Below are positions 2,563 to 60,373 of a DNA stretch of 64,000 nt, in pieces. The notes under the pieces are model-generated. The model saw nothing but the letters and a program-made list of their open reading frames with translations. It was not told where the DNA came from and did no database searches. The stretch comes from a virus (taxonomy: Duplodnaviria; Heunggongvirae; Uroviricota; Caudoviricetes). A program made the translations under genes and the position numbers. How positions within the stretch are numbered: the stretch's first letter is position 1; each line of letters opens with the position of its first letter. The stretch is taken from IMG/VR virus record IMGVR_UViG_3300021431_000002; one strand, written 5' to 3'.

Positions 2563-3267
2563 TTAATTTTTATAGATTTTTATTGTTACTCCTGCACAAT
2601 ATACCAACAATAACCCTAACATTGTTATCAATACAGAACATCCCCACATATAGTATATAAGGCAGAACATTAAAACAAGCCCAACTACAGTAGAACCTAT
2701 TCCGAATAGGAATTGATAATACAATAACGAGTGCTTTATTGGATAAGATTTCTTACTCAAGTAATCTTCAGCATAGAAGCTTAAAAAATTAGTTATACTA
2801 CTTCTATAATTTAATTTTTCCCATTTTTTAACATCATAATTGTTTATATAAATCATTCTGCAAAGTATTTTAAGCCTTTTTATCAAATCAGAATCATTTC
2901 TCATATTATACAATGTGATGCCTTTCAAATAAATAGGAGAGTCGTCTCTTAGCGCACTTCTTTTTTGTCCTGGAGGAACGTCTTTTATCGAATATCTCAT
3001 GCGGAATAGACCAAAAACTTTTTTGTTTTTTAACGCCCTACAAAAATCTTGCACTAGTTGGTGATTTTTACTAATCCCACAGAATTCAGAATCAATATCA
3101 GCATATGGGTCTTTTTTTATTTGTTCTTCCACCTTTTTAGCTTTTTTTAGTTTTCTTTTTATTCTAAGTTGTCTTAGTTTCTTGCTTTTTCTCATCCTTT
3201 TTGAAGACTTCTTTAAATGGACTAATAATGTTTTTCCAACTAAAGATTCTGTTAAGGATTCCTTCAT
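2563..3267 (-). CDS. membrane protein with a lysine-rich N-terminal region and two C-terminal transmembrane segments
   Basis: ORF in track. C-terminal hydrophobic stretches. Start uncertain because it overlaps 3164..3427. Confidence 0.4.
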   Translation of the reverse strand: MKESLTESLVGKTLLVHLKKSSKRMRKSKKLRQLRIKRKLKKAKKVEEQIKKDPYADIDSEFCGISKNHQLVQDFCRALKNKKVFGLFRMRYSIKDVPPGQKRSALRDDSPIYLKGITLYNMRNDSDLIKRLKILCRMIYINNYDVKKWEKLNYRSSITNFLSFYAEDYLSKKSYPIKHSLLYYQFLFGIGSTVVGLVLMFCLIYYMWGCSVLITMLGLLLVYCAGVTIKIYKN

Positions 3268-36410: not shown

Positions 36411-36607
36411 TTTTGCGCCTTGTTTATCTTAGGTCAATAATATAGAATAGGTTTACCTATACCAACCATAAAGGTATCCTCTTATCCATCAAGGAACTAG
36501 GGTAAGGGGCTAATCCTCGCACCGCATTACTGCTTCACCTACCATTTCTTACGTGGTTTGTGCTGTCTTACCTATTTCAGTACTTCACTTGAGTACACCA
36601 GCCGTAG

Positions 36608-36698
36608 TGAGCATAGTAGGATTCGAACCCACGATGAACTTTCTCAAGCCCATAACGGTTTTAGGGACCGCCACAATCGACCACTCTGCCATATGCCC
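36608..36698 (-). tRNA. class-II tRNA with a CUA anticodon loop (CCCTAAA): candidate amber-suppressor tRNA
   Basis: Acceptor GGGCATA/TATGCTC plus A73. D-arm GCA-GAGTGGTCGAT-TGT. Anticodon arm GCGGT-CCCTAAA-ACCGT. Long variable arm. T-arm GTGGG-TTCGAAT-CCTAC. Confidence 0.45.
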
Positions 36699-38973: not shown

Positions 38974-40185
38974 ATGAGAATTACTTATTGCAGGGACTGA
39001 CGGATTCGAACCGCCATCGTTTATTAACAGTTAAAGGCACACTCTGTTCCGAGGTCGAGAGTGCTTTATTCCTTAAAGCGCAACAAATTACTTTACCATT
39101 AAGCTAAATCCCTATATAAATACAAAAGACTGAGAATGTTGTCTTATTGTTAATGCCATTTTACAAGCGTTGGAACTTGCTATTCACACGTCACCTTACG
39201 ATGAACGTAGACATCATGCACGGAAGTCTTGAGAAGACAACCAAGAATCTTACTAGTTTAAACCTTGCGGTGCAGCATCATAGCTTTCAGTTCTTCGCCA
39301 AGCTCTTGCGGATTCATAGGATGCCTCCTATTAACTCAGACGAGTACTTTTACACGCTCATTGAATTCCTTGCGAGTCCTCAATGTCTCAATATTTCATG
39401 AGAATAAGTGCATTTTAGCTGCCTAGTGTCGCACACTTTTGCTTAAATTGATTTTTGAATCATATTTATGTTCCGTAGGCGGTTTGGAAGACGAGGTGCG
39501 ACTAAGGACATCTGTAACTTTTGGCTACAGCCCATCCAATCGCCTCCCTGTGCTAGCTCACCACAAGCTATTCACTATTATACACCATCACCTCATATGA
39601 GTTCTTACACATTTCTATGTAAGACTAGTGCATAACTGAGTACAACACGCCAACTGGTGATTATTGCATCATACTCCATACAGTAATCTATCGTGTCACC
39701 ACTCATTCAAAGATTCCTCACCCTTGAAAATATACAACTTTGGTGTTACCCACATTGTATACCGTACTGTATGCTTTTCAGTGAAATACATGAGAGTTTC
39801 TCATATATCTGCAACGTTTACCGCTAGTACACGTCACATTTATCCCATCACTGGATTATCCTTCCATCTGGCTACGAAAGCTAGCCATTAGCCTCATATC
39901 TTTCGCAAGATATTTCCTCATGGAAATTGGCTTATTTCTTGAGTTTTTCATTCGTTTTCAGTTTATTATAATAGGTAAACTGCTTCCTCTTTAGAGGTGG
40001 GTTCATATCCCAAGCTCCTATTTTTTAGCCCTACATCGAATTTTTTTACCCAATACTTACTTTTTTCTAGTACACGTTCTCTAGAATATGGTTCCCGAAG
40101 TTACCATTGCTATGGATTGTTTAACCACATAAAACCCATTTTTACCGTTGTCTACGGCACGAAAAGGCATATCTCGTTGGTTAGA

Positions 40186-41452: not shown

Positions 41453-41965
41453 AACTAAATTGTTTTTTTACTTTAAAAATAATCAGCTACACGAACCTCT
41501 TCAATGTACTTATGAAAGATTCCCTTCCATACATGTTATACAGATTAACGCATGACTTATATCCTAATATAGCCTAACTTTACTGTAAAAGTTTACTTCA
41601 TCATCCAACCCTGACTGATTATTTAGTGGACTTGCGCAGAGTCGAACTGCGGTCCAAACAACCATTCCATAAGAAATTATACAAGCTTTGATTTGGAAAG
41701 TTGACAGCAAACGCTGCCCTCACCGCTACCTTATTTTGCGAAAACAAGGAAAACTATACAAAGATGACTAAAGAATAATGCTAGGGTGTTCTGTTCCTAA
41801 GAGCCTAGCCTCTCGGCTTACATTACGCAGCTATAGCGTACTCGTAAGCAGGAGAATCAACATTCTCGCCAGTTATATTTTTTGCTATTGAAGTGTATGC
41901 CCACTGCTTGTTTCTTACCAAATGCATTGCTGTCAAATCCATTACAAGCCCATGATAAAAAATTG

Positions 41966-47129: not shown

Positions 47130-47425
47130 CCAAATTCATTAACTTTTTTTTAGAAAAAAAGGGTACATTAAACCAACATTTCAACCCCTCCAAATGTCAT
47201 AGCTAAAAATGCGGAGGGGGTAGGAATCGAACCTACGTTACACAAATTAACAGTCTGCTTGAAAAAAATAATTTTGCTGTGTGTACCCACTAAATATGTT
47301 TCCAAAGTAACCTTCCCTGACATCGAACCTTTGGCACATTATTACAGACTAATGCGTTCTGTTCTAGATTCCTCACCGTATAAAAATGCATCTGTATACC
47401 TAATATGCGGCTTCTCCTAGTATCG

Positions 47426-50173: not shown

Positions 50174-51088
50174 TCATTGATTAATACTACTCAATATATG
50201 TTCTTTCCAGTAATTACGTCTTGTACTATTTTTGTTTTTAGATTTAAAAGTGTCTAGTTGACTATCACAGTTAGGGCATATCATCCTTAAATTTTCTCTT
50301 TTGTTGTTTGACGCATCACCATCAATATGGTCTAATACAAACACTAACGGTTTACCATTATGTTCTGGTTTACATCCGCATATTGCACAAACACCACCTT
50401 GCTCAGACATAAATTGTTCTCTTACAAAGCCTCTAGGCGTGTAATTTCCTCTACAATATTTTTCATTGTTCTCTATAAAATCTTTATATCTATCTTCTTT
50501 TAGTTTGTTTGATGAACATTCATTCGAACAGAATCTAGCTTTAAGATTTTTTGTTTGAAATGGTTTACCACAGAATTCACAAATTTTAGTTAGTATTTGT
50601 TTACTTCTACAATTACCTTTTCTTTGTTTGTCGTATAAAACTTTTCTACATTCATCACTACAATACTTTGTATTCTTTCCTTCTAGTTCTTTTCCACAAA
50701 CAACACAATATCTTTTAGGGTGTTCTACTTTTTTCGTAGATTCTTTTCTAAGTGCATTAGCAACCCTTTCATAAACGGATTTATCTCTATGTTCATTGTT
50801 ATACTTAGCTGAACAAGCTGAACAACAAAAATCCTTGCCCCATTTACTAGTAATTTCTTTACCGCATTGTTTGCAATATCTAATTGGTTTCTTTCGTCTC
50901 TCTTTATAAACAGACAAATCAAATCCAACTGACAATGCAATTTCTTTCAAGTATTCAGAACCTTGTTTATTATCACTAATTCCAAAATATACGTGTGCTT
51001 GATTTTTACTAGTAAAGCCATCAAGTCTTTCAAAGACCTCTTTCTTTTTCTCTTCGGTACTAATGTCAATAATTTTTCTTTTTCTCAT
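50174..51088 (-). CDS. HNH endonuclease with multiple N-terminal zinc-ribbon repeats
   Basis: C-terminal VLDHIDGDASNNKRENLRMICPNCDSQ HNH motif. Repeated C..C...C..C modules. Confidence 0.7.
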   Translation of the reverse strand: MRKRKIIDISTEEKKKEVFERLDGFTSKNQAHVYFGISDNKQGSEYLKEIALSVGFDLSVYKERRKKPIRYCKQCGKEITSKWGKDFCCSACSAKYNNEHRDKSVYERVANALRKESTKKVEHPKRYCVVCGKELEGKNTKYCSDECRKVLYDKQRKGNCRSKQILTKICEFCGKPFQTKNLKARFCSNECSSNKLKEDRYKDFIENNEKYCRGNYTPRGFVREQFMSEQGGVCAICGCKPEHNGKPLVFVLDHIDGDASNNKRENLRMICPNCDSQLDTFKSKNKNSTRRNYWKEHILSSINQ

Positions 51089-51175
51089 ATTTAAATGTAT
51101 TACCTATATAATAAATAATACATTTTTGCGGAAAATCAAGGTTTTGACTAATTTTTTTTTATAACACTGTTGTCG

Positions 51176-51264
51176 AGGAAGGAGAGGGATTCAAACCCTC
51201 GGAACGCTCATCACGTTCGCAGCTTTTCAAGAGCTGTGCAATAAATCACTCTGCCACCCTTCCA
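51176..51264 (-). tRNA. tRNA-Ser(UGA), class II
   Basis: Acceptor GGAAGGG/TCCTTCC. D-stem GCA/TGC. Anticodon arm CAGCT-CTTGAAA-AGCTG. Variable hairpin CGAACG-TGATGA-GCGTTC. T-arm GAGGG-TTTGAAT-CCCTC. Confidence 0.75.
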
Positions 51265-51277
51265 TTTTTCTACCTTG

Positions 51278-51350
51278 TGGAGCTGAAGAGAATCGAACTC
51301 TCCCACGAACCTTGCAAAGGTCCATCGCCAGCCTTGGAACATGCAACCCC
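51278..51350 (-). tRNA. tRNA-Ala(UGC) with G3:U70
   Basis: Acceptor GGGGTTG/CAGCTCC plus A73. Anticodon arm GGACC-TTTGCAA-GGTTC. T-arm GAGAG-TTCGATT-CTCTT. Confidence 0.55.
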
Positions 51351-51527
51351 TACTGCCTCATCACTATCGTAGATGAAAGGCTTGCACACGACTAGGTAAA
51401 ATGACTGCTACCTTGAACGGACGTATGGCTAACGTTGTGGGTTACTTCGTCCCACTTCACAGTTTAACAACCCTAGTCACCCATATGTACATCTTTGGAT
51501 GTTGTTTTAGGCCCACGTCTGGGATTG

Positions 51528-51600
51528 CTGGTCCACTGGGACTCGAACCCAGCCTCGCAGATTAACAGTCTGCCGTGCTAACCACTATCACTATAGACCA
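51528..51600 (-). tRNA. tRNA-Asn(GUU)
   Basis: Acceptor TGGTCTA/TGGACCA. Anticodon arm GCAGA-CTGTTAA-TCTGC. T-arm CTGGG-TTCGAGT-CCCAG. Confidence 0.75.
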
Positions 51601-51607
51601 ATATTTG

Positions 51608-51679
51608 CTGGGAAGGAGAATTTCGAAATCTCGACCTGATGATTAACAGTCATCTGCTCTGCCTCTGAGCTACTACCCA
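51608..51679 (-). tRNA. tRNA-Asn(GUU) paralog with an aberrant T-arm
   Basis: D-arm GCTC-AGAGGCA-GAGC. Anticodon arm GATGA-CTGTTAA-TCATC. T-region GAGA-TTTCGAAAT-TCTC. Confidence 0.5.
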
Positions 51680-51831
51680 ATGTAAAAAAGATGCTGTGTT
51701 GGAGGCGTAAATCTCTCGCCCACTTTAACCCAAACTAGGCGTGGAAAACACGTCTGCTCGGAAGGGTACGACTTTCCACATTTAATCTACTTCAACGCAT
51801 TTCGAACTACGTTTTTTTGAACACCTTTTGT

Positions 51832-51940
51832 GGATGCAATAGGATTCGAACCTATGATTTAATTACCATCGTCATGGGTGTAACGCCCCCCATCGCGCAA
51901 CTCAGATGGTCACTCCCCAGAGGAGTCCTTACACGCATCC
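51832..51940 (-). tRNA. 109-nt tRNA-like gene with an unresolved internal region
   Basis: Acceptor GGATGCG/TGCATCC spans 109 nt. T-arm ATAGG-TTCGAAT-CCTAT. Confidence 0.3.
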
Positions 51941-52120
51941 ATTTTTTTTATTTTGTTTAAACAGTACCTTACATTTAATTAAACTACCTTGACAGCAGTC
52001 ATTGCAAGTCCCATACCAAGGTAAAATACATTTTGTTCCTTTCCACCAAGTACAAATATTGCAAAGTTTTACGAGAATTTGATTTATTTTTTGTGGTTTT
52101 TTTATCTTTTTAAATTTCAT
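51929..52120 (-). CDS. small Cys-rich protein (63 aa)
   Basis: ORF in track. C..C......C...C. Confidence 0.3.
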   Translation of the reverse strand: MKFKKIKKPQKINQILVKLCNICTWWKGTKCILPWYGTCNDCCQGSLIKCKVLFKQNKKNGCV

Positions 52121-52280
52121 AACTCTGTTTCCAATATATATTTTAATGGTCTTACGGCTTCGTTTGGGATTTGTTTGTTAAGATGTTTAATACGTTTGTC
52201 AATATATTCTCCATTAGTAGAATCCTCTATAAATTGTTTCCCGCCATTATGCCATAATTTATAAATTTTATATTTCATTG

Positions 52281-52353
52281 CGGAACATACGAGAGTTGAA
52301 CTCGCTCCTTACTGCGTGACAGGCAGAAATCTTAACCGTTTGACCTATGTTCC
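52281..52353 (-). tRNA. tRNA-Asp(GUC)
   Basis: Acceptor GGAACAT/ATGTTCC plus G73. Anticodon loop CTGTCAC in stem CTGC/GCAG. T-arm GCGAG-TTCAACT-CTCGT. Confidence 0.75.
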
Positions 52354-52359
52354 TTTTTG

Positions 52360-52442
52360 AGCTGGAGACAGGATTCGAACCTGCGAGGGCTTTCGCCTTT
52401 GGGTTACAAAGCCAACCTATTCAACCACTCTAGCACTCCAGC
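52360..52442 (-). tRNA. class-II tRNA with an unresolved anticodon (Tyr- or Leu-like body)
   Basis: Acceptor GCTGGAG/CTCCAGC. D-stem CTA/TAG. Variable hairpin GGC-GAAA-GCC. T-arm GCAGG-TTCGAAT-CCTGT. Confidence 0.5.
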
Positions 52443-52627
52443 AATTGTTAAACTAGGTCTCCGCTCTTATCGGAAGTTACGCACAGAGTTGCTTGCTAAA
52501 TATTGGCGTTGCAACGGTCTTAGCAATTAATCTCTTCCATTCTAGAAATGGAGTCACAGAAACTCAGCGTTTACTATTCAAATGACCTTTTAAAAACCAA
52601 ATTCACGCATTGTTATTACCTAGTTTG

Positions 52628-52656
52628 TGGGGAGGGGTGGACTCGAACCACCATTA
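52628..52656 (-). other. tRNA 3' half (T-arm plus 3' acceptor) directly downstream of the HNH gene
   Basis: GGTGG-TTCGAGT-CCACC followed by CCTCCCC. The matching 5' piece GGGGAGGTAGCAAAGATGG lies at 53233-53251, beyond the HNH gene. Confidence 0.45.
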
Positions 52657-52659
52657 CCC

Positions 52660-53136
52660 TTATGTTTTATTTTTACCACAATATGTTTCTGTTTGAGAAT
52701 GGCAGTTAGGGCATAATAGTCTTAAATTTTCTATCCTATTATCTCTATTATTGCCGTTAATGTGGTCTAATTGTAAAACTATTTTTTTACCCAACCATTC
52801 ATTAATACCACATATTGCACATTTATATTCTATTAAATTTGACTTTAGAATTCTTAGTTTAAGACGAGTCATATTTGTATATATACTATCTTTTACTAAA
52901 ATTTTTTCTAAAGGAAATGTTTCATTTTTGGCTAAACCATTAGATTTACCTAAAAAATGAGAAAAACTAATATTATTCTCTCTAAGATATTTTTTCAACG
53001 GTTGATACGAGTTTCCTCTATTCGCAGTATAGCCTAGTTTTCTCATAACTTCAGCGAATGTTTTGCTATTTTGCACAATATTAGATAACTCTTCTTTATC
53101 AATTTTTTTATAATAACATTCCATTATTATTTTCAA
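52660..53136 (-). CDS. HNH homing-type endonuclease, inserted between the two halves of a Tyr-like tRNA
   Basis: LQLDHINGNNRDNRIENLRLLCPNCH HNH motif. Flanked by tRNA half sequences. Confidence 0.75.
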   Translation of the reverse strand: MKIIMECYYKKIDKEELSNIVQNSKTFAEVMRKLGYTANRGNSYQPLKKYLRENNISFSHFLGKSNGLAKNETFPLEKILVKDSIYTNMTRLKLRILKSNLIEYKCAICGINEWLGKKIVLQLDHINGNNRDNRIENLRLLCPNCHSQTETYCGKNKT

Positions 53137-53232
53137 TTAACTATGTGGGGGTTCCAGTTGCCGCCACTGGTCCTATTGATTTTCAGTCAATCGCTTCTAC
53201 TGAGTTAGCTTAACCCCCAAATTATTAAACCA

Positions 53233-53251
53233 TCTTTGCTACCTCCCCAAT
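53233..53251 (-). other. tRNA 5' fragment (acceptor plus start of the D-arm) upstream of the HNH gene
   Basis: GGGGAGG-TA-GCAAAGATGG. A near-identical motif occurs at 60071-60090. Confidence 0.4.
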
Positions 53252-53262
53252 ATTTACTTTTT

Positions 53263-53300
53263 TGCAAAGATACAAAAAAATTTTTTAATATCCAAATTTT
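53263..53300 (-). promoter_or_regulatory. Bacteroidetes-type promoter
   Basis: tgcaaagata at 53263-53272 and ccaaatttt at 53292-53300. Confidence 0.55.
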
Positions 53301-53637
53301 TGTAAATAAATTAACTTTCATTAACCCATAGCATATAAAAAAGCTGCTGATTACTTTTTTGGAGTTCATCAACAGCTTGGGAAATATATAGTGAAGTAAG
53401 TGCCTTTATATTATTCTTTTATATCATACCTCCATATCACCTTCTAGCTGTTCTAGAACCTTTGAGTTAAACACAACTGTATCATTCCATTTACTATCCG
53501 CAAATGAATTAGAAAATGTATTAGCGATATTTTTAATAGTTGCATTCATAATATAAAAGTTTAATTGATTTTTTCTATAATTATTATTTAACTCTCAAAA
53601 AGTTCTATTTTTTGTAATTTTTTTTTTATTTTTTTTT

Positions 53638-54072
53638 TTACTTTAAGTCGTTTCCGCACTTTTTACACTTGTTTTTAACGTCATCAAAGTATTTTTTTGC
53701 TTCTTGATTTGATGTGAAATCTCTTGTTTCATCATTTCTACTATTCAAGCAAGAGATTATCACCTTTGCTTTAGCATAGACTGCTTTTTCGTTCTCATTC
53801 AAAAAACTATCCCAATATTCATAATTCAGTTCATATGCTTTTTTAAGTGGTTGAAACCTAAATAAAGTGTTTCCCCAACCAACTTTATACAAATCTTCTT
53901 TTGCACGTTTCGGAATCAATGGAATTAAACCAAAAAGTTTCCAAAAAAACCATTTTCCTCTTGGAACAGCAACTTTCATTTCCTCTATTTTTTCCATTGG
54001 TATGAAAAGTATGCTTTTTATACTTTTATAGAAAGCAGTGCCTTCTACCTTAATAGGATTATAGGTTTCCAT
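53638..54072 (-). CDS. hypothetical protein (144 aa) with a C-terminal CxxC pair
   Basis: ORF in track. Confidence 0.45.
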   Translation of the reverse strand: METYNPIKVEGTAFYKSIKSILFIPMEKIEEMKVAVPRGKWFFWKLFGLIPLIPKRAKEDLYKVGWGNTLFRFQPLKKAYELNYEYWDSFLNENEKAVYAKAKVIISCLNSRNDETRDFTSNQEAKKYFDDVKNKCKKCGNDLK

Positions 54073-54099
54073 TGTATTCGTTGTTTATTGAGTTTCACA

Positions 54100-54148
54100 A
54101 TGCAAATATATAAATAATTTTTTTAATTTCCAAATTTTTAGCGAAAAA
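54100..54148 (-). promoter_or_regulatory. Bacteroidetes-type promoter (variant -7 TATATTTGCA)
   Basis: tgcaaatata and ccaaatttt boxes. Confidence 0.5.
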
Positions 54149-54151
54149 AAA

Positions 54152-54484
54152 TTATGCAGATTCTGCAATTGATATGTCTTTTTCTTCATCAGTAACATCA
54201 CTATAGCTAGTAACACTAGAAATATGTTCAACGCTTTTATCCCCAATTTGTGTAAAAACTTGGTTTATGCCTCTGATTTTTACTTTTTCTCCATTGGTAT
54301 ACCCATCAACATATCCTTTGTAGCCACCTTTTTTACCATCTTCTTTGATGTAGTCAAAACTAACAATATCTCCTTCTACCCCTTCATATTTTTTAGTGAT
54401 AGTATTATAGAGTTTTTTGTCTTTAACTATCAAATATGTTTCATCTATGTTGATTTCTATGTCAGTATTTACTTTTATTATCAT
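54152..54484 (-). CDS. hypothetical protein. Start trimmed because the N-terminal extension overlaps a tRNA
   Basis: ORF in track. Confidence 0.35.
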   Translation of the reverse strand: MIIKVNTDIEINIDETYLIVKDKKLYNTITKKYEGVEGDIVSFDYIKEDGKKGGYKGYVDGYTNGEKVKIRGINQVFTQIGDKSVEHISSVTSYSDVTDEEKDISIAESA

Positions 54485-54503
54485 ATTTGGAAATTTGATT
54501 TTG

Positions 54504-54592
54504 TATAGAGGGTGGGATTCGAACCCACAAGTACCTTTCGATACACTAGTTTCGTAGACTAGGACGGTCATCCAGTTACGTTTTACCCCTAC
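54504..54592 (-). tRNA. tRNA-Arg(ACG) with an extended variable arm (89 nt)
   Basis: Acceptor GTAGGGG/CCTCTAT. D-loop AACTGGATGA. Anticodon arm CTAGT-CTACGAA-ACTAG. Variable TGTATCGAAAGGTACT. T-arm GTGGG-TTCGAAT-CCCAC. Confidence 0.55.
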
Positions 54593-54795
54593 ATAAAGGA
54601 ACGGTCAATTTATTGCCTTGACTCGGCATTCGCTCCGAAGAGCATAGATAAGTGCCTCGCAATGATTATTTAACGCTTCTCTTATCCTTCGTCTAGTCAG
54701 ATTAATAATTAAAAATGTTTTGTAAATTAATATCAAACTGCTGTACGCTCCTACTAACACGCAAATAGATGCAACTAGGCATTCTAGATACGTTG

Positions 54796-54884
54796 TGGCC
54801 CTAGAGGGATTCGAACCCCCAACTACCTCTCAGTAGAACTGTTTAGAAGACAGTGACGGTCATCCAATTACGTTTTATAGGGTC
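54796..54884 (-). tRNA. tRNA-Arg(UCU) with an extended variable arm. Paralog of 54504
   Basis: Same D-arm (TAAAACGTAATTGGATGACCGTC). Anticodon arm ACTGT-CTTCTAA-ACAGT. T-arm GGGGG-TTCGAAT-CCCTC. Confidence 0.55.
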
Positions 54885-54892
54885 AATTAGTA

Positions 54893-54975
54893 CATCCGCT
54901 GGGACTCGAACCCAGAACCTACGGCTTCTTGCCACTCTATGTTGCCATAGCCAAGTAATGCTATTAAAGTATGTA
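54893..54975 (-). tRNA. tRNA-like element (T-arm CTGGG-TTCGAGT-CCCAG). 5' half unresolved
   Basis: T-arm and 3' acceptor CGGATGT only. Confidence 0.25.
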
Positions 54976-55500
54976 ACGAAGGCACCCGTATCCTTCTCTT
55001 AATGGGTTATTTATCACATACACATCAGTTGTTGTGGTCTAGAATACATTATTACCATATTGAAATTCTTGCAAGTAAAGAACATCAGATAACACTATTT
55101 TAGGACTGTCAGCCTCTCTCGATGACTGTATACGGGGTTGTCATCCCAAATAGGTAATGAGCCTATCGTACCATTTCTTTTGTTCTTAATTTCAACTTAG
55201 GTATCTCCTATATGCTCTCTACACATTTATGAATGTAGCATACTTAATCATTAACTTTTCTGAAGCGTATTTTCATTCTCATTAGAGATTTTTTCGCCTC
55301 TACATTCAATTTAGCACGGTATTATCCTTACACGTTATTGGTTAGTGTGACGTTCTCTTAGTGCGCTGTGCATAACCTTTGAACTATAGTAGCACGTGCC
55401 GTTTTCCAAGAAGGACTTCCACCGTTTTAGGGAGATTCTACATAGGGATTTCTCGCCTATGCATCCAATTTGGTTTAATCATTTTCGGATGTATTTATTG

Positions 55501-55581
55501 TGATGGGACTGGGACTCGAACCCAGATTCCTTTCGGAGCCAGTTTAGAAGACTGGTGCATTATCCATCCTGCCCTCCCACC
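55501..55581 (-). tRNA. tRNA-Arg(UCU)-like with a 3-bp D-stem and an extended variable arm
   Basis: Acceptor GGTGGGA/TCCCATC. D-arm GCA-GGATGGATAA-TGC. Anticodon arm CCAGT-CTTCTAA-ACTGG. T-arm CTGGG-TTCGAGT-CCCAG. Confidence 0.5.
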
Positions 55582-55979
55582 AAATAAAATTTATCTATTT
55601 TTTCATTATATCTATAAAACTTACAACCAAGTTCAGATATTATTTCTTTTTGCCTTTTGATGGGTCATAATCCCCATAAATAAAAGGCTCTTTTGGGTCA
55701 ACCTTTTTAGCGTGTTTAATCTCATAGAGAAATAATCCAAGAGATAAAACCACCATAATCCCTATAACAATAAAAATAATAGTCATAATTATTGTTTGTT
55801 TTTTATTTTGTTGGCTAAATCATCAATATCCTTTTCAAAAGTTTCTCTGTTTTCTTTTTTAGAGGTTTTATTGCCTTTTCTACCTAAGAAATCAGACACC
55901 ACCATAAATACAAGTGCCATGATTAATGCAGTGAACATAAAAAATAGTAATCTTCCCATTTGTTTTTTCGTTTTAACAA

Positions 55980-56015
55980 TGCAAATATATGAAAAAAAAT
56001 TGGAATAGCCAAATT
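55980..56015 (-). promoter_or_regulatory. Bacteroidetes-type promoter variant
   Basis: tgcaaatata and ccaaatt boxes. Confidence 0.4.
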
Positions 56016-56833: not shown

Positions 56834-56860
56834 ATAAAAAAAAACAGGAAACGTGTTTTT

Positions 56861-56925
56861 ATACTGTCGCATTTAGCCACTCTGCCAACCTTCAAAGAAG
56901 GTGTGGGATTCGAACCCACGAAACC
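56861..56925 (-). other. tRNA 3' half followed immediately by a class-II tRNA 5' half (permuted or fragment arrangement)
   Basis: On the minus strand: GTGGG-TTCGAAT-CCCAC ACCTTC-TTT-GAAGGT TG GCA GAGTGGCTAAA TGC. No 5' half lies upstream of the T-arm. Confidence 0.35.
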
Positions 56926-57070
56926 ATACGGTAACGGTTTTCAGAACAAATATTGCTGCTTGTTTCCTTTGTAAAAAAACTACTGAGTAATTGTAGGGGC
57001 GATGGGTAATGCTCCCACTATCTCATGCTTATAAGGCATGTGCTTTTACTGTCTAAGCTACACCCCAATC

Positions 57071-57714: not shown

Positions 57715-57756
57715 AGTTTATCCATTTAAAAAAAGGAAACGTTTGTTGTTTATTTT

Positions 57757-57880
57757 TAGTGCTCTATCCAACTGAGCTACCGCCACATTATCGTTATAAA
57801 ATTGAGTGGCGGACAGGACTCGAACCTGCGACCCCTAGCTTGGAATGCTTTTTAAACGATATACATTGCTGTACGTTTCC
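57757..57880 (-). other. circularly permuted-looking tRNA module. The T-arm plus 3' acceptor (57806-57830) is followed 15 nt downstream by a canonical 5' acceptor plus D-arm (57757-57790)
   Basis: Minus strand reads ...GCAGG-TTCGAGT-CCTGT CCGCCAC T [15 nt] GTGGCGG TA GCTC AGTTGGATA GAGC A. The two acceptor strands are perfectly complementary. Confidence 0.4.
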
Positions 57881-59947: not shown

Positions 59948-60070
59948 ATAAAACGATGCAAGTGATAAGCCTCGCAGTTTTTTTATTTAACGTGGAGAAC
60001 CTTGGATACTTCCTGCGTTACCAAACTCCATTCCTACCCTATGATTTTTGGAAACATTTTTTTCCATCTT

Positions 60071-60130
60071 AGCTACCTCCCCAAGTTTAATAATTTGTGG
60101 GGAGGGTTGGACTCGAACCAACGACCCTTA
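60071..60130 (-). other. Tyr-like tRNA 3' half followed by a 5' fragment (permuted arrangement). A repeat of the pieces flanking the HNH gene at 52628/53245
   Basis: GTTGG-TTCGAGT-CCAAC CCTCCCC A [16 nt] GGGGAGG TA GCTAAGATGG. Confidence 0.4.
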
Positions 60131-60373
60131 AATTATTAGTTTAATGCTATACCCTTTAATACTTGCTGTATGTTTCCTTGTATCATTTAATCATATAAAC
60201 CTCCGTGTGTTGGTTCATATTCTCCACCACTTTTATTAGTTACAGCATCCACCATGTGTTGGTTCGTACTCACCACCTCCGTAGAGGTATGGGTCTTCAT
60301 CATCGTGCATCATGAGGTTGCTATAATCATTCTTATCAACTGCTGCCATAATAATTCTTTTTTAAATTACTTT

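Follow-up and report, generated by a model that had tools for sequence, protein, structure and literature searches.

A tRNA-Phe gene apparently interrupted by a putative homing-endonuclease cassette, and a family of tRNA-like small RNAs, in a giant rumen phage

The DNA analyzed is a 64-kb window (64,000 nt) of the approximately 400-kb genome of a giant rumen phage, and all parts of the first locus described here (site A) lie on its minus strand. The locus begins with a Bacteroidetes-type promoter (TTTG-N20-TATCTTTGC, 53296-53264), one of 24 such motifs in the window, every one of them on the minus strand (0.83 expected), and the only candidate promoter 5' of the features that follow. These are a tRNA 5' remnant (GGGGAGGTAGCAAAGATGGT, 53248-53229), a divergent tRNA-Phe(GAA) (53218-53146) with its leader (TTAATAATTT, 53228-53219), an HNH endonuclease gene (53124-52660, stop codon included), and, 1 nt after the stop codon, a tRNA 3' remnant (52658-52628) that comprises the variable loop, the T arm, the 3' strand of the acceptor stem and the discriminator A. 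The leader marks the left end of the inserted cassette, and is present in all HNH-bearing alleles but not in the intact allele of related phages (see below).

The first-pass annotation had noticed two tRNA pieces directly adjoining an HNH ORF and had read them as the halves of a Tyr-like tRNA. Both strings are present far beyond chance, with GGTTCGAGTCCANCCCTCCCCA occurring twice (52628-52649 and 60098-60119, minus strand; 0.00 expected) and likewise GGGGAGGTAGCWAAGATGG (53230-53248 and 60064-60082; 0.01 expected), although the coordinates given for the 5' piece were 3 nt off. The ORF is real, and the 3' piece does follow its stop codon directly, but the 5' piece is not directly upstream of the HNH start, since the complete tRNA-Phe(GAA) at 53218-53146, which had been overlooked, intervenes. 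The likeness to the tRNA-Tyr of the window (62323-62237) is confined to a common D-arm string (GCTAAGATGG), and the Tyr-like identity was dropped once an intact tRNA-Phe gene turned up.

At the orthologous site, at least six related metagenomic contigs (L098, L107, L108, L117, L118 and L119) carry an uninterrupted, 73-nt tRNA-Phe gene. This intact allele (GGGGAGGTAGCAAAGATGGTCAATGCACCAGACTGAAAATCTGGCAATGGTGGTTCGAGTCCACCCCTCCCCA) was found in ten contigs, is predicted to fold as a cloverleaf, and was called tRNA-Phe(GAA) by ARAGORN in all four of the ten that were scanned. The 5' remnant matches its positions 1-20 at 20 of 20 nt and the 3' remnant its positions 43-73 at 30 of 31 nt; by this alignment, the pieces at site A are the exact ends of a canonical 73-nt tRNA-Phe(GAA). 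In the window, about 570 nt stand in place of positions 21-42 (22 nt, spanning the last part of the D arm and the greater part of the anticodon arm), with the breaks in the D loop and the variable loop and not in the anticodon loop. The upstream flanks of L098, L107, L108, L118 and L119 correspond to the window up to position 53250/53251 (84–88% identity), L117 matches the window on both sides of the locus, and the flank 3' of the 3' remnant (CAAACTAGGTAATAAC) is shared with the intact alleles of L115, L117 and L120. Comparison with phages lacking the HNH gene, as proposed in the first-pass annotation, also placed the promoter, which had been credited to the insert: since L098, L107, L108 and L118 have the same promoter ahead of the intact gene, that at 53296-53264 is a property of the resident tRNA gene and lies outside the insert.

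The HNH ORF has its own start and stop codons and encodes a protein of 154 aa, which exceeds the Pfam cut-offs for HNH_3 (26.4 bits, cut-off 24.8) and HNH (22.6 bits, cut-off 21.4), matches phrog_10822 at 1e-52, and has 2865 homologues. Among 79 more distant homologues from IMG/VR, 33 have a tRNA within 260 nt upstream. The tRNA of the cassette scores 40.6 bits over the full Rfam tRNA model and differs from the resident tRNA-Phe almost everywhere except in the anticodon loop. Its T loop reads GGCGGCA, its D loop is without GG, its minimum-free-energy fold is not a cloverleaf, and it was not called by ARAGORN. The left end of the cassette and the linker of a second element (site B, see later) share a 17-nt inverted match, which was taken as chance (E=0.34).

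The cassette is found in the window, in L001 and in L088–L091, and the HNH-bearing allele is identical in L001, L088, L089 and L090. The 3' remnant is retained in L091, the 5' fragment of which is neither matching nor complementary, while L094 retains a longer 5' fragment and no 3' remnant; with one piece altered or missing in each, the two pieces are not kept as a pair. In L083–L087, HNH homologues (82% identity) each follow a tRNA-Phe(GAA)-like gene with a covarying acceptor stem and have no flanking remnants, and L083 is syntenic with the window. A third nuclease-like ORF occupies the locus in L092–L095; the 383-aa ORF of this third allele gave only a sub-threshold match, to phage endonuclease I. 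Fragments of tRNA are stacked at the locus in L092 and L094 and look like illegitimate joins. Searching the INPHARED phage collection with positions 51000-56000 returned only a 49-nt tRNA match, and scans of IMG/VR with the 5' piece and the junction pattern returned only two contigs, both of this clade. Elsewhere on the minus strand of the window (50174-51263) is a second cassette of the same kind, consisting of a tRNA-Ser(TGA) (51263-51175) and a 304-aa HNH gene (51088-50174, Pfam HNH_3); at this spot L001, a relative of 98–99% identity, lacks the HNH gene and carries another tRNA-Ser(TGA) allele. The window also encodes a standard tmRNA (41951-41626), a CCA-adding enzyme and an RNA ligase.

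Judged from these alignments, site A is a resident tRNA-Phe(GAA) gene disrupted by a mobile cassette, in which a divergent tRNA-Phe(GAA) precedes a free-standing gene for an HNH homing endonuclease. As expected of such a cassette, the nuclease ORF is intact and is not housed in a self-splicing intron or an intein, and it is polymorphic for presence and absence, with an uninterrupted target in relatives that lack it; a homing-endonuclease insertion that split a tRNA gene was one of the two readings offered in the first-pass annotation. In a mixed infection, the HNH enzyme would cleave a related phage's intact tRNA-Phe allele, within or close to the segment replaced by the insert, and repair from the donor would then copy in both the nuclease gene and the tRNA linked to it. 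The putative target site is deduced from the position of the insert only. Given its divergence outside the anticodon loop, the cassette tRNA should escape cutting and could replace the tRNA that was lost, although with aberrant T and D loops and a non-cloverleaf fold it can be considered only a candidate replacement, and a further tRNA-Phe may lie outside the window. The cassette, without a promoter of its own, would presumably be transcribed from that of the resident tRNA, after which the cassette tRNA would be cut out by RNase P and 3' processing, leaving the HNH mRNA. The two remnants are scars and not a working pair. They imply untidy repair, by microhomology or illegitimate joining, instead of clean gene conversion, and in that case the nuclease could be a passenger of another recombination event.

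Such nuclease-independent arrival, for example by illegitimate exchange of tRNA paralogues in a repetitive array, is nevertheless improbable. The remnants and the stacked tRNA fragments of L092 and L094 do resemble illegitimate joins, and short common motifs such as GGTTCGA are abundant in tRNA arrays, but two independent presence/absence polymorphisms of a tRNA-plus-HNH unit in one window are too regular for this, and a third nuclease-like ORF at the same locus, the adjoining tRNA in 33 of 79 homologues, and the known targeting of phage tRNA clusters by homing endonucleases (T4 SegB, PMC2330249) all weigh against it. The remnants might instead cooperate in the RNA, with a 7-bp acceptor/T-arm minihelix bracketing the HNH mRNA and providing defined ends, CCA addition or stability, and indeed the pieces are perfectly complementary, retain the D-loop GG and the T loop of the tRNA elbow, and share the window with a gene for a CCA-adding enzyme. 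Such a minihelix can be likened to the tRNA-like domain of tmRNA or to viral tRNA-like 3' ends. This role is very improbable, however, since the 20/20 and 30/31 matches to the intact allele fit a recent insertion and do not require selection, excision of the cassette tRNA would part the 5' piece from the mRNA, the pair is dispensable to judge from L091 and L094, and HNH homologues elsewhere are without such flanks. Group I introns occur in bacterial tRNA genes, and tRNA ends bracket the HNH gene here as they do with intron-encoded homing endonucleases, but the other reading of the first-pass annotation, an intron-like sequence (group I, group II or other) of about 570 nt that is spliced out to restore a working tRNA, is refuted: a cmscan of 52400-53500 with all Rfam families found no group I, group II or other intron family even at E<=10, the breaks lie elsewhere than in the anticodon loop, L091 and L094 have one matching piece each, and with 22 nt including the anticodon missing, the joined pieces would form a 51-nt RNA without an anticodon arm, which no splicing could turn back into a tRNA.

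Near 60.1 kb, where the first-pass annotation had seen duplicated copies of both tRNA halves, the strings do recur but in reversed order, the 3' piece preceding the 5' piece; they belong to a separate gene for a permuted small RNA (site B, 60177-60050, minus strand, 128 nt), which is unrelated to the insertion at site A. This Ile-like element opens with the 5' strand of a terminal helix (60177-60170) and the motif ACAGCAA (60169-60163), followed by an anticodon arm (60144-60128, loop CTAATAA), a T arm (60122-60106), the 3' strand of the acceptor stem (60105-60099), A73 (60098), a 15-nt linker (60097-60083), the acceptor 5' strand (60082-60076), a D region (60075-60058) and the 3' strand of the terminal helix (60057-60050). 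The acceptor stem is closed by a loop of 15–18 nt, and the ends are clamped by a helix of 7–8 bp beside ACAGCAA. The Rfam tRNA model matches only in part (model positions 7-64, 28.7 bits), while a covariance model (R1) gives 122.8 bits. An AGCAAG...TAGC stretch was considered as a second D arm and rejected, as paralogues show ACAGCAA to be a family motif.

Homologues of site B occur in different flanks, as a discrete unit in phages that are 85–93% identical, and in some relatives the element has its own promoter and a T-run. Compensatory changes are seen in an unbiased alignment; taken with the pair counts described next, they fall in the anticodon stem, the T stem and the terminal helix. Because MAFFT misaligned the 3' strand of the terminal helix, pairs were counted on parsed and concatenated segments, which were chosen partly for pairing, so that the percentages for the T stem and acceptor are biased; both partners have changed in 15 of 25 pairs, and pairing holds in 97% of cells, compared with 40–56% when partners are slid. 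No change breaks a pair within the stems, and unpaired cells are confined to the two terminal pairs of the closing helix. The minimum-free-energy fold is no better than that of shuffled sequence (z=0.19), and the structure therefore rests on covariation and not on energy. The probability that site A is a cassette inserted into tRNA-Phe and that site B is a real, conserved structured RNA is put at about 85%; this is a joint figure, and the function of site B stands outside it.

About ten small RNAs of the window, site B among them, have the terminal helix and ACAGCAA in common and form a previously undescribed family. A scan for this scaffold gave 11 examples on the minus strand, compared with about 1.3 expected on both strands. 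Another permuted tRNA-like member (57735-57880, minus strand; R1, 100.2 bits) has a weak anticodon stem, a full D arm in its downstream piece, a T-run beyond the terminal helix, and an alignment over the whole length of the Rfam YrlA model (E=3e-8 in a 201-nt search; 41.4 bits against a gathering score of 69). A third (47161-47288, minus strand; R1, 108.4 bits) is permuted and Asn-like, with the anticodon loop CTGTTAA, a T-run after it, and covariation of the acceptor and T stem in relatives. The fourth (56846-56968, minus strand; R1, 40.8 bits), also recovered in the scaffold scan, has GCAGCAA as its motif, a T-run after it, and a 6-bp acceptor-like stem with a 3-nt loop, in which ACCTTC/GAAGGT and ACTTTC/GAAAGT (L088, L092) represent a compensatory change. 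Among the members other than the Ile-like and Asn-like elements, the anticodon stem may be weak or replaced by a tetraloop, or the acceptor may be closed by only 3 nt, and some are without any tRNA-like part. Between orthologues that are near-identical, the anticodon loop varies (CTGATAA, CTAATAA or TTGATAA; CTGTTAA or CTGTCAA), which argues against decoding. Scans of six related loci at Rfam gathering scores returned only ordinary tRNAs, and no Rfam model detects the family at its gathering score. Reverse-transcriptase and TROVE domains were absent from 30 minus-strand ORFs of at least 180 aa, which are all those listed in the window at this length except two plus-strand overlaps, and on this ground a retron-like reading (a terminal stem plus AGC branch site) and a reading as Ro60 partners were both rejected.

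Site B is most probably a tRNA-mimicking RNA in the manner of a Y RNA, perhaps after RNase P has opened the acceptor loop. It is rather unlikely that site B and the related elements are genuine permuted tRNA genes, in which RNase P, 3' trimming and CCA addition open the acceptor loop and the product is charged and used in translation. The product envisaged would be a tRNA in two pieces that the terminal helix keeps together, or a one-piece tRNA if joined by the phage RNA ligase. The 7-bp acceptor stems, the T at -1 and the normal CA(A) trailer all agree with such maturation, the anticodon loops are identical to the loops of tRNA-Ile and tRNA-Asn in the same phage, genes for a CCA-adding enzyme and an RNA ligase lie in the window, and the YrlA of M. 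smegmatis, with its closed 7-bp acceptor, is cut by RNase P and CCA-tailed in vivo (PMC4201824). Against this stand the changes of anticodon loop among orthologues that are otherwise near-identical, and the members with a weak anticodon stem, a tetraloop, a 3-nt acceptor loop or no tRNA-like part at all. To our knowledge, moreover, no bacterial enzyme removes a terminal helix of this kind. It is quite improbable that site B is a functionless scar at the junction of two decayed tandem tRNA genes. The element does resemble the 3' portion of a tRNA joined to the 5' portion of a different one, and tandem normal tRNAs weakly match the same covariance model (the same warning is given in PMC4201824), but it has been kept as a discrete unit within differing flanks, its stems show compensatory changes with no internal pair broken, it has a promoter and T-run of its own in some relatives, and its terminal helix and ACAGCAA recur about ten times in the window.

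That phage tRNA clusters harbour homing endonucleases is already known. What site A would add is a selfish element that can destroy a resident tRNA gene and yet import a very different tRNA with the same anticodon, a pattern that would explain how selfish nucleases can reshuffle and diversify tRNA sets and still keep them complete, and that may account for the odd T and D loops of some tRNAs in such arrays. The locus has at least four alleles, some with stacked tRNA fragments, and would be a record of repeated invasions. Phage tRNAs counter anticodon-nuclease defences (PMC13096335). Through site B, giant rumen phages turn out to have, in multiple copies, a covarying family of tRNA-derived small RNAs, which would enlarge the small class of tRNA mimics (tmRNA, YrlA) and offers a testable case for whether bacterial viruses have permuted tRNAs or Y-RNA-like decoys. 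A bolder and distinctly speculative proposal is that these RNAs constitute a new phage class, defined by the terminal helix and ACAGCAA and carrying mostly tRNA or permuted-tRNA cargo, in which (in the boldest form) members with a 7-bp acceptor are matured by RNase P, the CCA-adding enzyme and perhaps the RNA ligase into chargeable two-piece or religated tRNAs; if true, permuted tRNA genes would be known for the first time beyond archaea and eukaryotes.

Among known systems, site A is similar to T4 SegB, a homing endonuclease in a phage tRNA cluster (PMC2330249; PMC13096335), in that a nuclease gene lies among phage tRNA genes, is present or absent among close relatives, and is apparently inherited with flanking tRNA DNA. 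SegB, however, is a GIY-YIG enzyme encoded between intact tRNA genes, whereas at site A a gene for an HNH enzyme with a putative homing role interrupts a tRNA gene, the two ends of which are left, and a very divergent tRNA with the same anticodon is brought in. In Aeromonas phage Aeh1, the free-standing HNH gene mobE is inserted in nrdA, and the two protein halves reassemble with function kept. Site A likewise has a free-standing HNH gene within a gene and two pieces left, but 22 nt were lost and the pieces cannot work, so that any function must come from the imported tRNA.

For site B, the two-piece tmRNA (RF04321) offers a T arm and acceptor 3' strand followed by a loop and the acceptor 5' strand, but it matches only at model positions 36-95 (20.2 bits against a gathering score of 47), and site B is without a tag reading frame, pseudoknots or the G3:U70 pair, with only 32 nt after its acceptor 5' strand. 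The circularly permuted tRNA genes reported from red and green algae and Thermofilum (Soma 2007, Maruyama 2010 and Chan 2011, cited in 10.1101/312249) also have the 3' part upstream of the 5' part, an acceptor stem closed by a linker, and paired transcript ends. Site B and the Asn-like element contain all tRNA parts in permuted order (anticodon arm, variable loop, T arm, acceptor 3' strand, linker, acceptor 5' strand and D region). In the algal and archaeal genes a bulge-helix-bulge is cut by a splicing endonuclease and the ends are ligated, whereas the termini in the window are a plain helix of 7–8 bp followed by ACAGCAA, which is without counterpart there, and no bulge-helix-bulge was evident by eye; we know of no such splicing endonuclease in bacteria or phages. 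YrlA Y RNAs (RF02553; PMC4201824; bioRxiv 10.1101/312249) have been likened by their authors to a circularly permuted tRNA, and consist of the 5' strand of a terminal helix with a short motif, a stem-loop, a T arm, a closed acceptor-like stem, a D arm and the 3' strand of the helix. Their GNCGAAN0-1G motif (PMC4201824) is replaced in window members by ACAGCAA or GCAGCAA, with GTCGAAG seen only in two unrelated phage loci (L030, L043), and the gathering score of 69 is not reached by the best window element (41.4 bits) or by site B (13.5 bits). No Ro60/Rsr (TROVE) gene, which for YrlA lies on the same strand within about 4 kb, was found at that distance or among the 30 minus-strand window ORFs of at least 180 aa. 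The window elements differ further in being multi-copy, in lying within tRNA arrays and, in several cases, in keeping a full anticodon arm with a true anticodon loop besides the terminal helix. Although these defining features fail, the YrlA RNAs are the closest known relatives of the family, which has the same order of modules, a T arm, a closed acceptor-like stem and a D arm within an end helix.

The window is AT-rich (35% G+C), and every feature discussed here lies on its minus strand. It is part of the tRNA region of a phage of approximately 400 kb, as follows from its content of about 38 tRNA genes, a tmRNA and an amber-suppressor tRNA (ARAGORN and Rfam), the presence of an identical HNH protein on contigs as long as 407,879 bp, its relatives, which come from rumen and bovine metagenomes, and its promoter motif. 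There are 24 occurrences of the Bacteroidetes-type motif TTTG-N18-22-TAnnTTTGC where 0.83 would be expected, and all are on the minus strand. A promoter of this type indicates that the host is probably a Bacteroidota bacterium. The suppressor tRNA (36607-36698) has a CTA anticodon and the tmRNA (41624-41951) is of the standard type, while domain searches identified an RNA ligase (PF09414, 1979-1074) and, at 6031-4625, a CCA-adding enzyme with a PolyA_pol head and an HD domain.

The first-pass annotation described an HNH endonuclease gene between two halves of a tRNA, with a duplicate of the halves elsewhere, an observation that is real but was incompletely read. Both pieces exist, and each has one near-identical copy near 60.1 kb, against a chance expectation of none. 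Position 52628 is the end of the 3' piece, GGTGG-TTCGAGT-CCACC-CCTCCCC-A, and the 5' piece, GGGGAGG-TA-GCAAAGATGG, has the sequence originally reported but is located at 53248-53230, a shift of 3 nt. The ORF between them does encode an HNH endonuclease, but the stretch separating it from the 5' piece also holds an entire tRNA-Phe(GAA), at 53218-53146, that had been overlooked. A scan of metagenome contigs for the 5' piece revealed ten in which it continues into an ordinary 73-nt gene, GGGGAGG-TA-GCAAAGATGGTCAATGC-A-CCAGA-CTGAAAA-TCTGG-CAAT-GGTGG-TTCGAGT-CCACC-CCTCCCC-A, which folds as a cloverleaf and was called tRNA-Phe(GAA) by ARAGORN in the four of these contigs that were scanned. In the related contigs L098, L107, L108, L118 and L119, an upstream stretch of 200-470 nt is 84-88% identical to the window, and this similarity stops at 53250/53251, adjoining the 5' piece. 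In L117 both sides of the locus match the window, and the window's downstream flank, CAAACTAGGTAATAACAATGC, is also found in L115, L117 and L120. The intact gene and matching flanks in these relatives indicate that the window holds a disrupted allele of this tRNA-Phe gene.

Positions 1-20 of the gene are retained at 53248-53229 and positions 43-73, with one C-to-T change, at 52658-52628, while 22 nt of the intact gene, CAATGCACCAGACTGAAAATCT, are replaced by about 570 nt made up, in order, of TTAATAATTT, a divergent tRNA-Phe, 21 nt of spacer, the ORF for the HNH enzyme and a single additional G. The earlier proposal of a homing-endonuclease insertion was therefore right in substance, a tRNA-Phe gene having been disrupted by a tRNA-plus-HNH cassette. 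The intron also considered there is refuted, since the anticodon arm is gone, so that splicing could not restore a tRNA, and an Rfam search across the disrupted locus found no match to an intron model. The cassette tRNA-Phe (Rfam, 40.6 bits) escapes ARAGORN, probably because of its T loop (GGCGGCA) and a D loop without GG; it has aberrant elbow motifs and does not fold as a cloverleaf at minimum free energy.

The relative L001, identical to the window throughout the locus (100%), shares this disrupted allele, as do L088-L090. L091 carries the same cassette and 3' remnant, and has a different 5' fragment, GGGAACTTTGACAGAGATGG, that is not complementary to the 3' remnant and stands after another tRNA. 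In a third allele (L092-L095; L092:10650-12200 and L094:10640-12200), the same promoter is followed by stacked fragments and a new gene. These open with a 5' fragment, which is X(1-28) in L094 and the unrelated GGGGCTGTAGCTCAAGAGGC in L092. Next come 18 nt from the start of a further tRNA-Phe type, a third full-length tRNA-Phe(GAA) and finally an ORF of 383 aa that resembles phage endonuclease I below threshold. The 3' remnant is absent from this allele. Remnants that differ in this way are scars of repeated invasions rather than a conserved pair. HNH homologues of 82% identity occur in L083-L087 (L083 is syntenic with the window), each preceded at a distance of about 15 nt by a tRNA-Phe(GAA)-like gene that has a markedly different sequence and a covarying acceptor stem (GGGCAA/TTGCCC vs GGGGGA/TCCCCC), and no flanking remnants were found at these loci. 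ARAGORN places a tRNA no more than 260 nt upstream of 33 out of 79 more distant HNH homologues in IMG/VR. The window itself contains a second tRNA-plus-HNH cassette, with a tRNA-Ser(TGA) at 51263-51175 and a 304-aa HNH gene at 51088-50174, at a place where L001, otherwise 98-99% identical, has a different, lone tRNA-Ser(TGA) allele and no HNH gene.

The insertion itself, its polymorphism and the linkage of tRNA and nuclease are demonstrated; we infer the rest of the mechanism from what has been established for free-standing homing endonucleases such as SegB, which is encoded in the tRNA cluster of phage T4 (PMC2330249). The HNH enzyme would cut the intact tRNA-Phe allele of a co-infecting relative, and repair would copy the nuclease gene and the neighbouring tRNA from the donor. 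The imported tRNA should be immune to cutting because it differs from the resident almost everywhere outside the anticodon loop. Since both ends of the resident gene persist, the joins made in repair appear to lie in short homologies (left, GATGGT; right, GG) and not in long flanks. The cassette brings no promoter motif with it and directly follows the promoter of the resident tRNA.

Several other tRNAs in the window are unusual. A subset of five (47601-47530, 47766-47695, 51679-51607, 57067-56994 and the cassette tRNA at 53218-53146) has the non-canonical T loops TGCAAAA, GGCAGAA, TTCGAAA, AGCATTA and GGCGGCA together with D loops without GG, e.g., AGCTCAGAAGTAGAGC, and four of the five are missed by ARAGORN. 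Arg, Thr and Met tRNAs (27167-27083, 54592-54503, 55581-55500, 52442-52359 and 23880-23795) have long variable arms capped by CGAAAG-type loops, which is unusual for these tRNAs. A 123-nt match to the tRNA model (38991-39113, 42.1 bits), not called by ARAGORN, has roughly 50 extra nucleotides inserted behind its anticodon-arm region.

The copies near 60.1 kb stand in the order 3' piece, 15-nt linker, 5' piece, and are not duplicated halves. The element containing them (site B, 60177-60050) is unrelated to the event at the tRNA-Phe locus and belongs to a new family of small RNAs derived from tRNA, the more novel of the two findings. It consists of the 5' strand of a terminal helix, GGAAACAT, followed by ACAGCAA and 18 nt ending in TAGCA; an anticodon arm, TTAAA-CTAATAA-TTTAA, and GGGTC; a T arm, GTTGG-TTCGAGT-CCAAC, and CCTCCCC-A; the linker, CAAATTATTAAACTT; and GGGGAGG-TA-GCTA-AGATGG, AAAAAA and the 3' strand of the terminal helix, ATGTTTCC. 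Its body matches positions 7-64 of the Rfam tRNA model (28.7 bits), the junction is weakly matched by the permuted-tmRNA model, and the anticodon loop, variable loop and T arm are similar to those of the phage's own tRNA-Ile(GAT). At least ten further contigs contain homologues, with different flanking sequence, and some of these have their own promoter and T-run. The loop is CTGATAA (TTGATAA in L112), i.e., the Ile GAT anticodon, in every relative that lies outside the window's own lineage. Between the window type and that of L088/L092/L094, the anticodon stem changes from TTAAA/TTTAA to TTTGA/TCAAA or TTTGT/ACAAA, and the T stem from GTTGG/CCAAC to GTGAG/CTCAC, both changes being seen in an unbiased MAFFT alignment. 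Every linker has CA at its start and T at -1 at its end, around a freely variable middle.

In every relative seen, the acceptor stem GGGGAGG/CCTCCCC, discriminator and CAAA trailer are identical in the permuted Ile-like element and tRNA-Phe. In the window type, the D-arm start is also common to both (60064-60082 and 53230-53248), ending after GATGG, one base before the tRNA-Phe break. Upstream of site B (60187-60349), two short overlapping ORFs repeat the peptide GGEYEPTHGG, and L001 has a 24-nt deletion in this region.

A structural scan detected two further permuted elements with the site B layout and ACAGCAA after the terminal helix, one at 57880-57735 and one, Asn-like with the loop CTGTTAA, at 47288-47161. 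In the concatenated parsed segments of 12 distinct sequences, 97% of cells are paired (40-56% with partners slid) and both sides change in 15 of the 25 pairs, including three in the terminal helix, with the caveat that the segments had been chosen partly for pairing in the T stem and acceptor. A covariance model of the core gave family members 97-127 bits and revealed a fourth (56968-56846) with a 6-bp acceptor-like stem, which covaries (ACCTTC/GAAGGT vs ACTTTC/GAAAGT), and a closing loop of only 3-6 nt. The pattern of helix, CAGCAA and complementary strand had 11 minus-strand and two plus-strand matches, against about 1.3 on both strands together in shuffles. Other members have a T arm and a degenerate closed acceptor (59732-59623), enclose an ARAGORN 'tRNA-???' (62062-61947) or have a tRNA core without an acceptor stem (23792-23698), and three further scaffolds (63839-63767, 42844-42773 and 40781-40717) are hairpin forms of 65-73 nt. 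The approximately ten scaffolds in the window have a terminal helix of 6-8 bp, ACAGCAA directly after its 5' strand, a variable interior (permuted tRNA, tRNA core or plain hairpin) and often a T-run; many begin 2-6 nt past a normal tRNA, and a scan of the window gave them no Rfam family at gathering score.

Within near-identical orthologues the anticodon loop varies, the T loop and acceptor stem never do, and some family members have no anticodon arm or a tightly capped acceptor. The variable loops, missing arms and tight caps favour, as the most likely reading, a tRNA-mimicking RNA that would bind a protein via the helix and ACAGCAA, over a tRNA used in decoding, which we consider unlikely. 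Maturation of those members with 7-bp acceptor stems is possible, as the window encodes both a CCA-adding enzyme and an RNA ligase.

These putative tRNA mimics have the same gene order as the permuted tRNA genes of algae and archaea, but the latter depend on a splicing endonuclease that, to our knowledge, is not known in bacteria. A full-text search of a limited literature set found no paper on permuted tRNA or tRNA-like genes in phage tRNA arrays. The closest known family is YrlA, a Y RNA of bacteria and phages, with a tRNA-like module whose acceptor stem is closed and which 'resembles circularly permuted tRNAs'; in M. smegmatis this RNA has a 7-bp stem, undergoes RNase P cleavage and has CCA added (PMC4201824; 10.1101/312249). 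The YrlA model gives one element of the window 41.4 bits; however, the gathering score is not reached, ACAGCAA takes the place of the Ro60-binding motif GNCGAAN0-1G, and several members retain a genuine anticodon arm. Domain searches of the window's 30 minus-strand ORFs of 180 aa or more found no TROVE gene. Permuted tRNA-like elements with a terminal helix and other conserved motifs are also present at unrelated phage loci, none of them reaching the Rfam YrlA gathering score: L076 has four (e.g., at 3050, 7057 and 8177, minus strand; motif CGCCTAGAGA..TTTCATC), one of which lacks an anticodon arm, L086 has one (1700-1826), and those of L030 (1117-1226) and L043 (506-622) carry GTCGAAG, which fits the YrlA motif.
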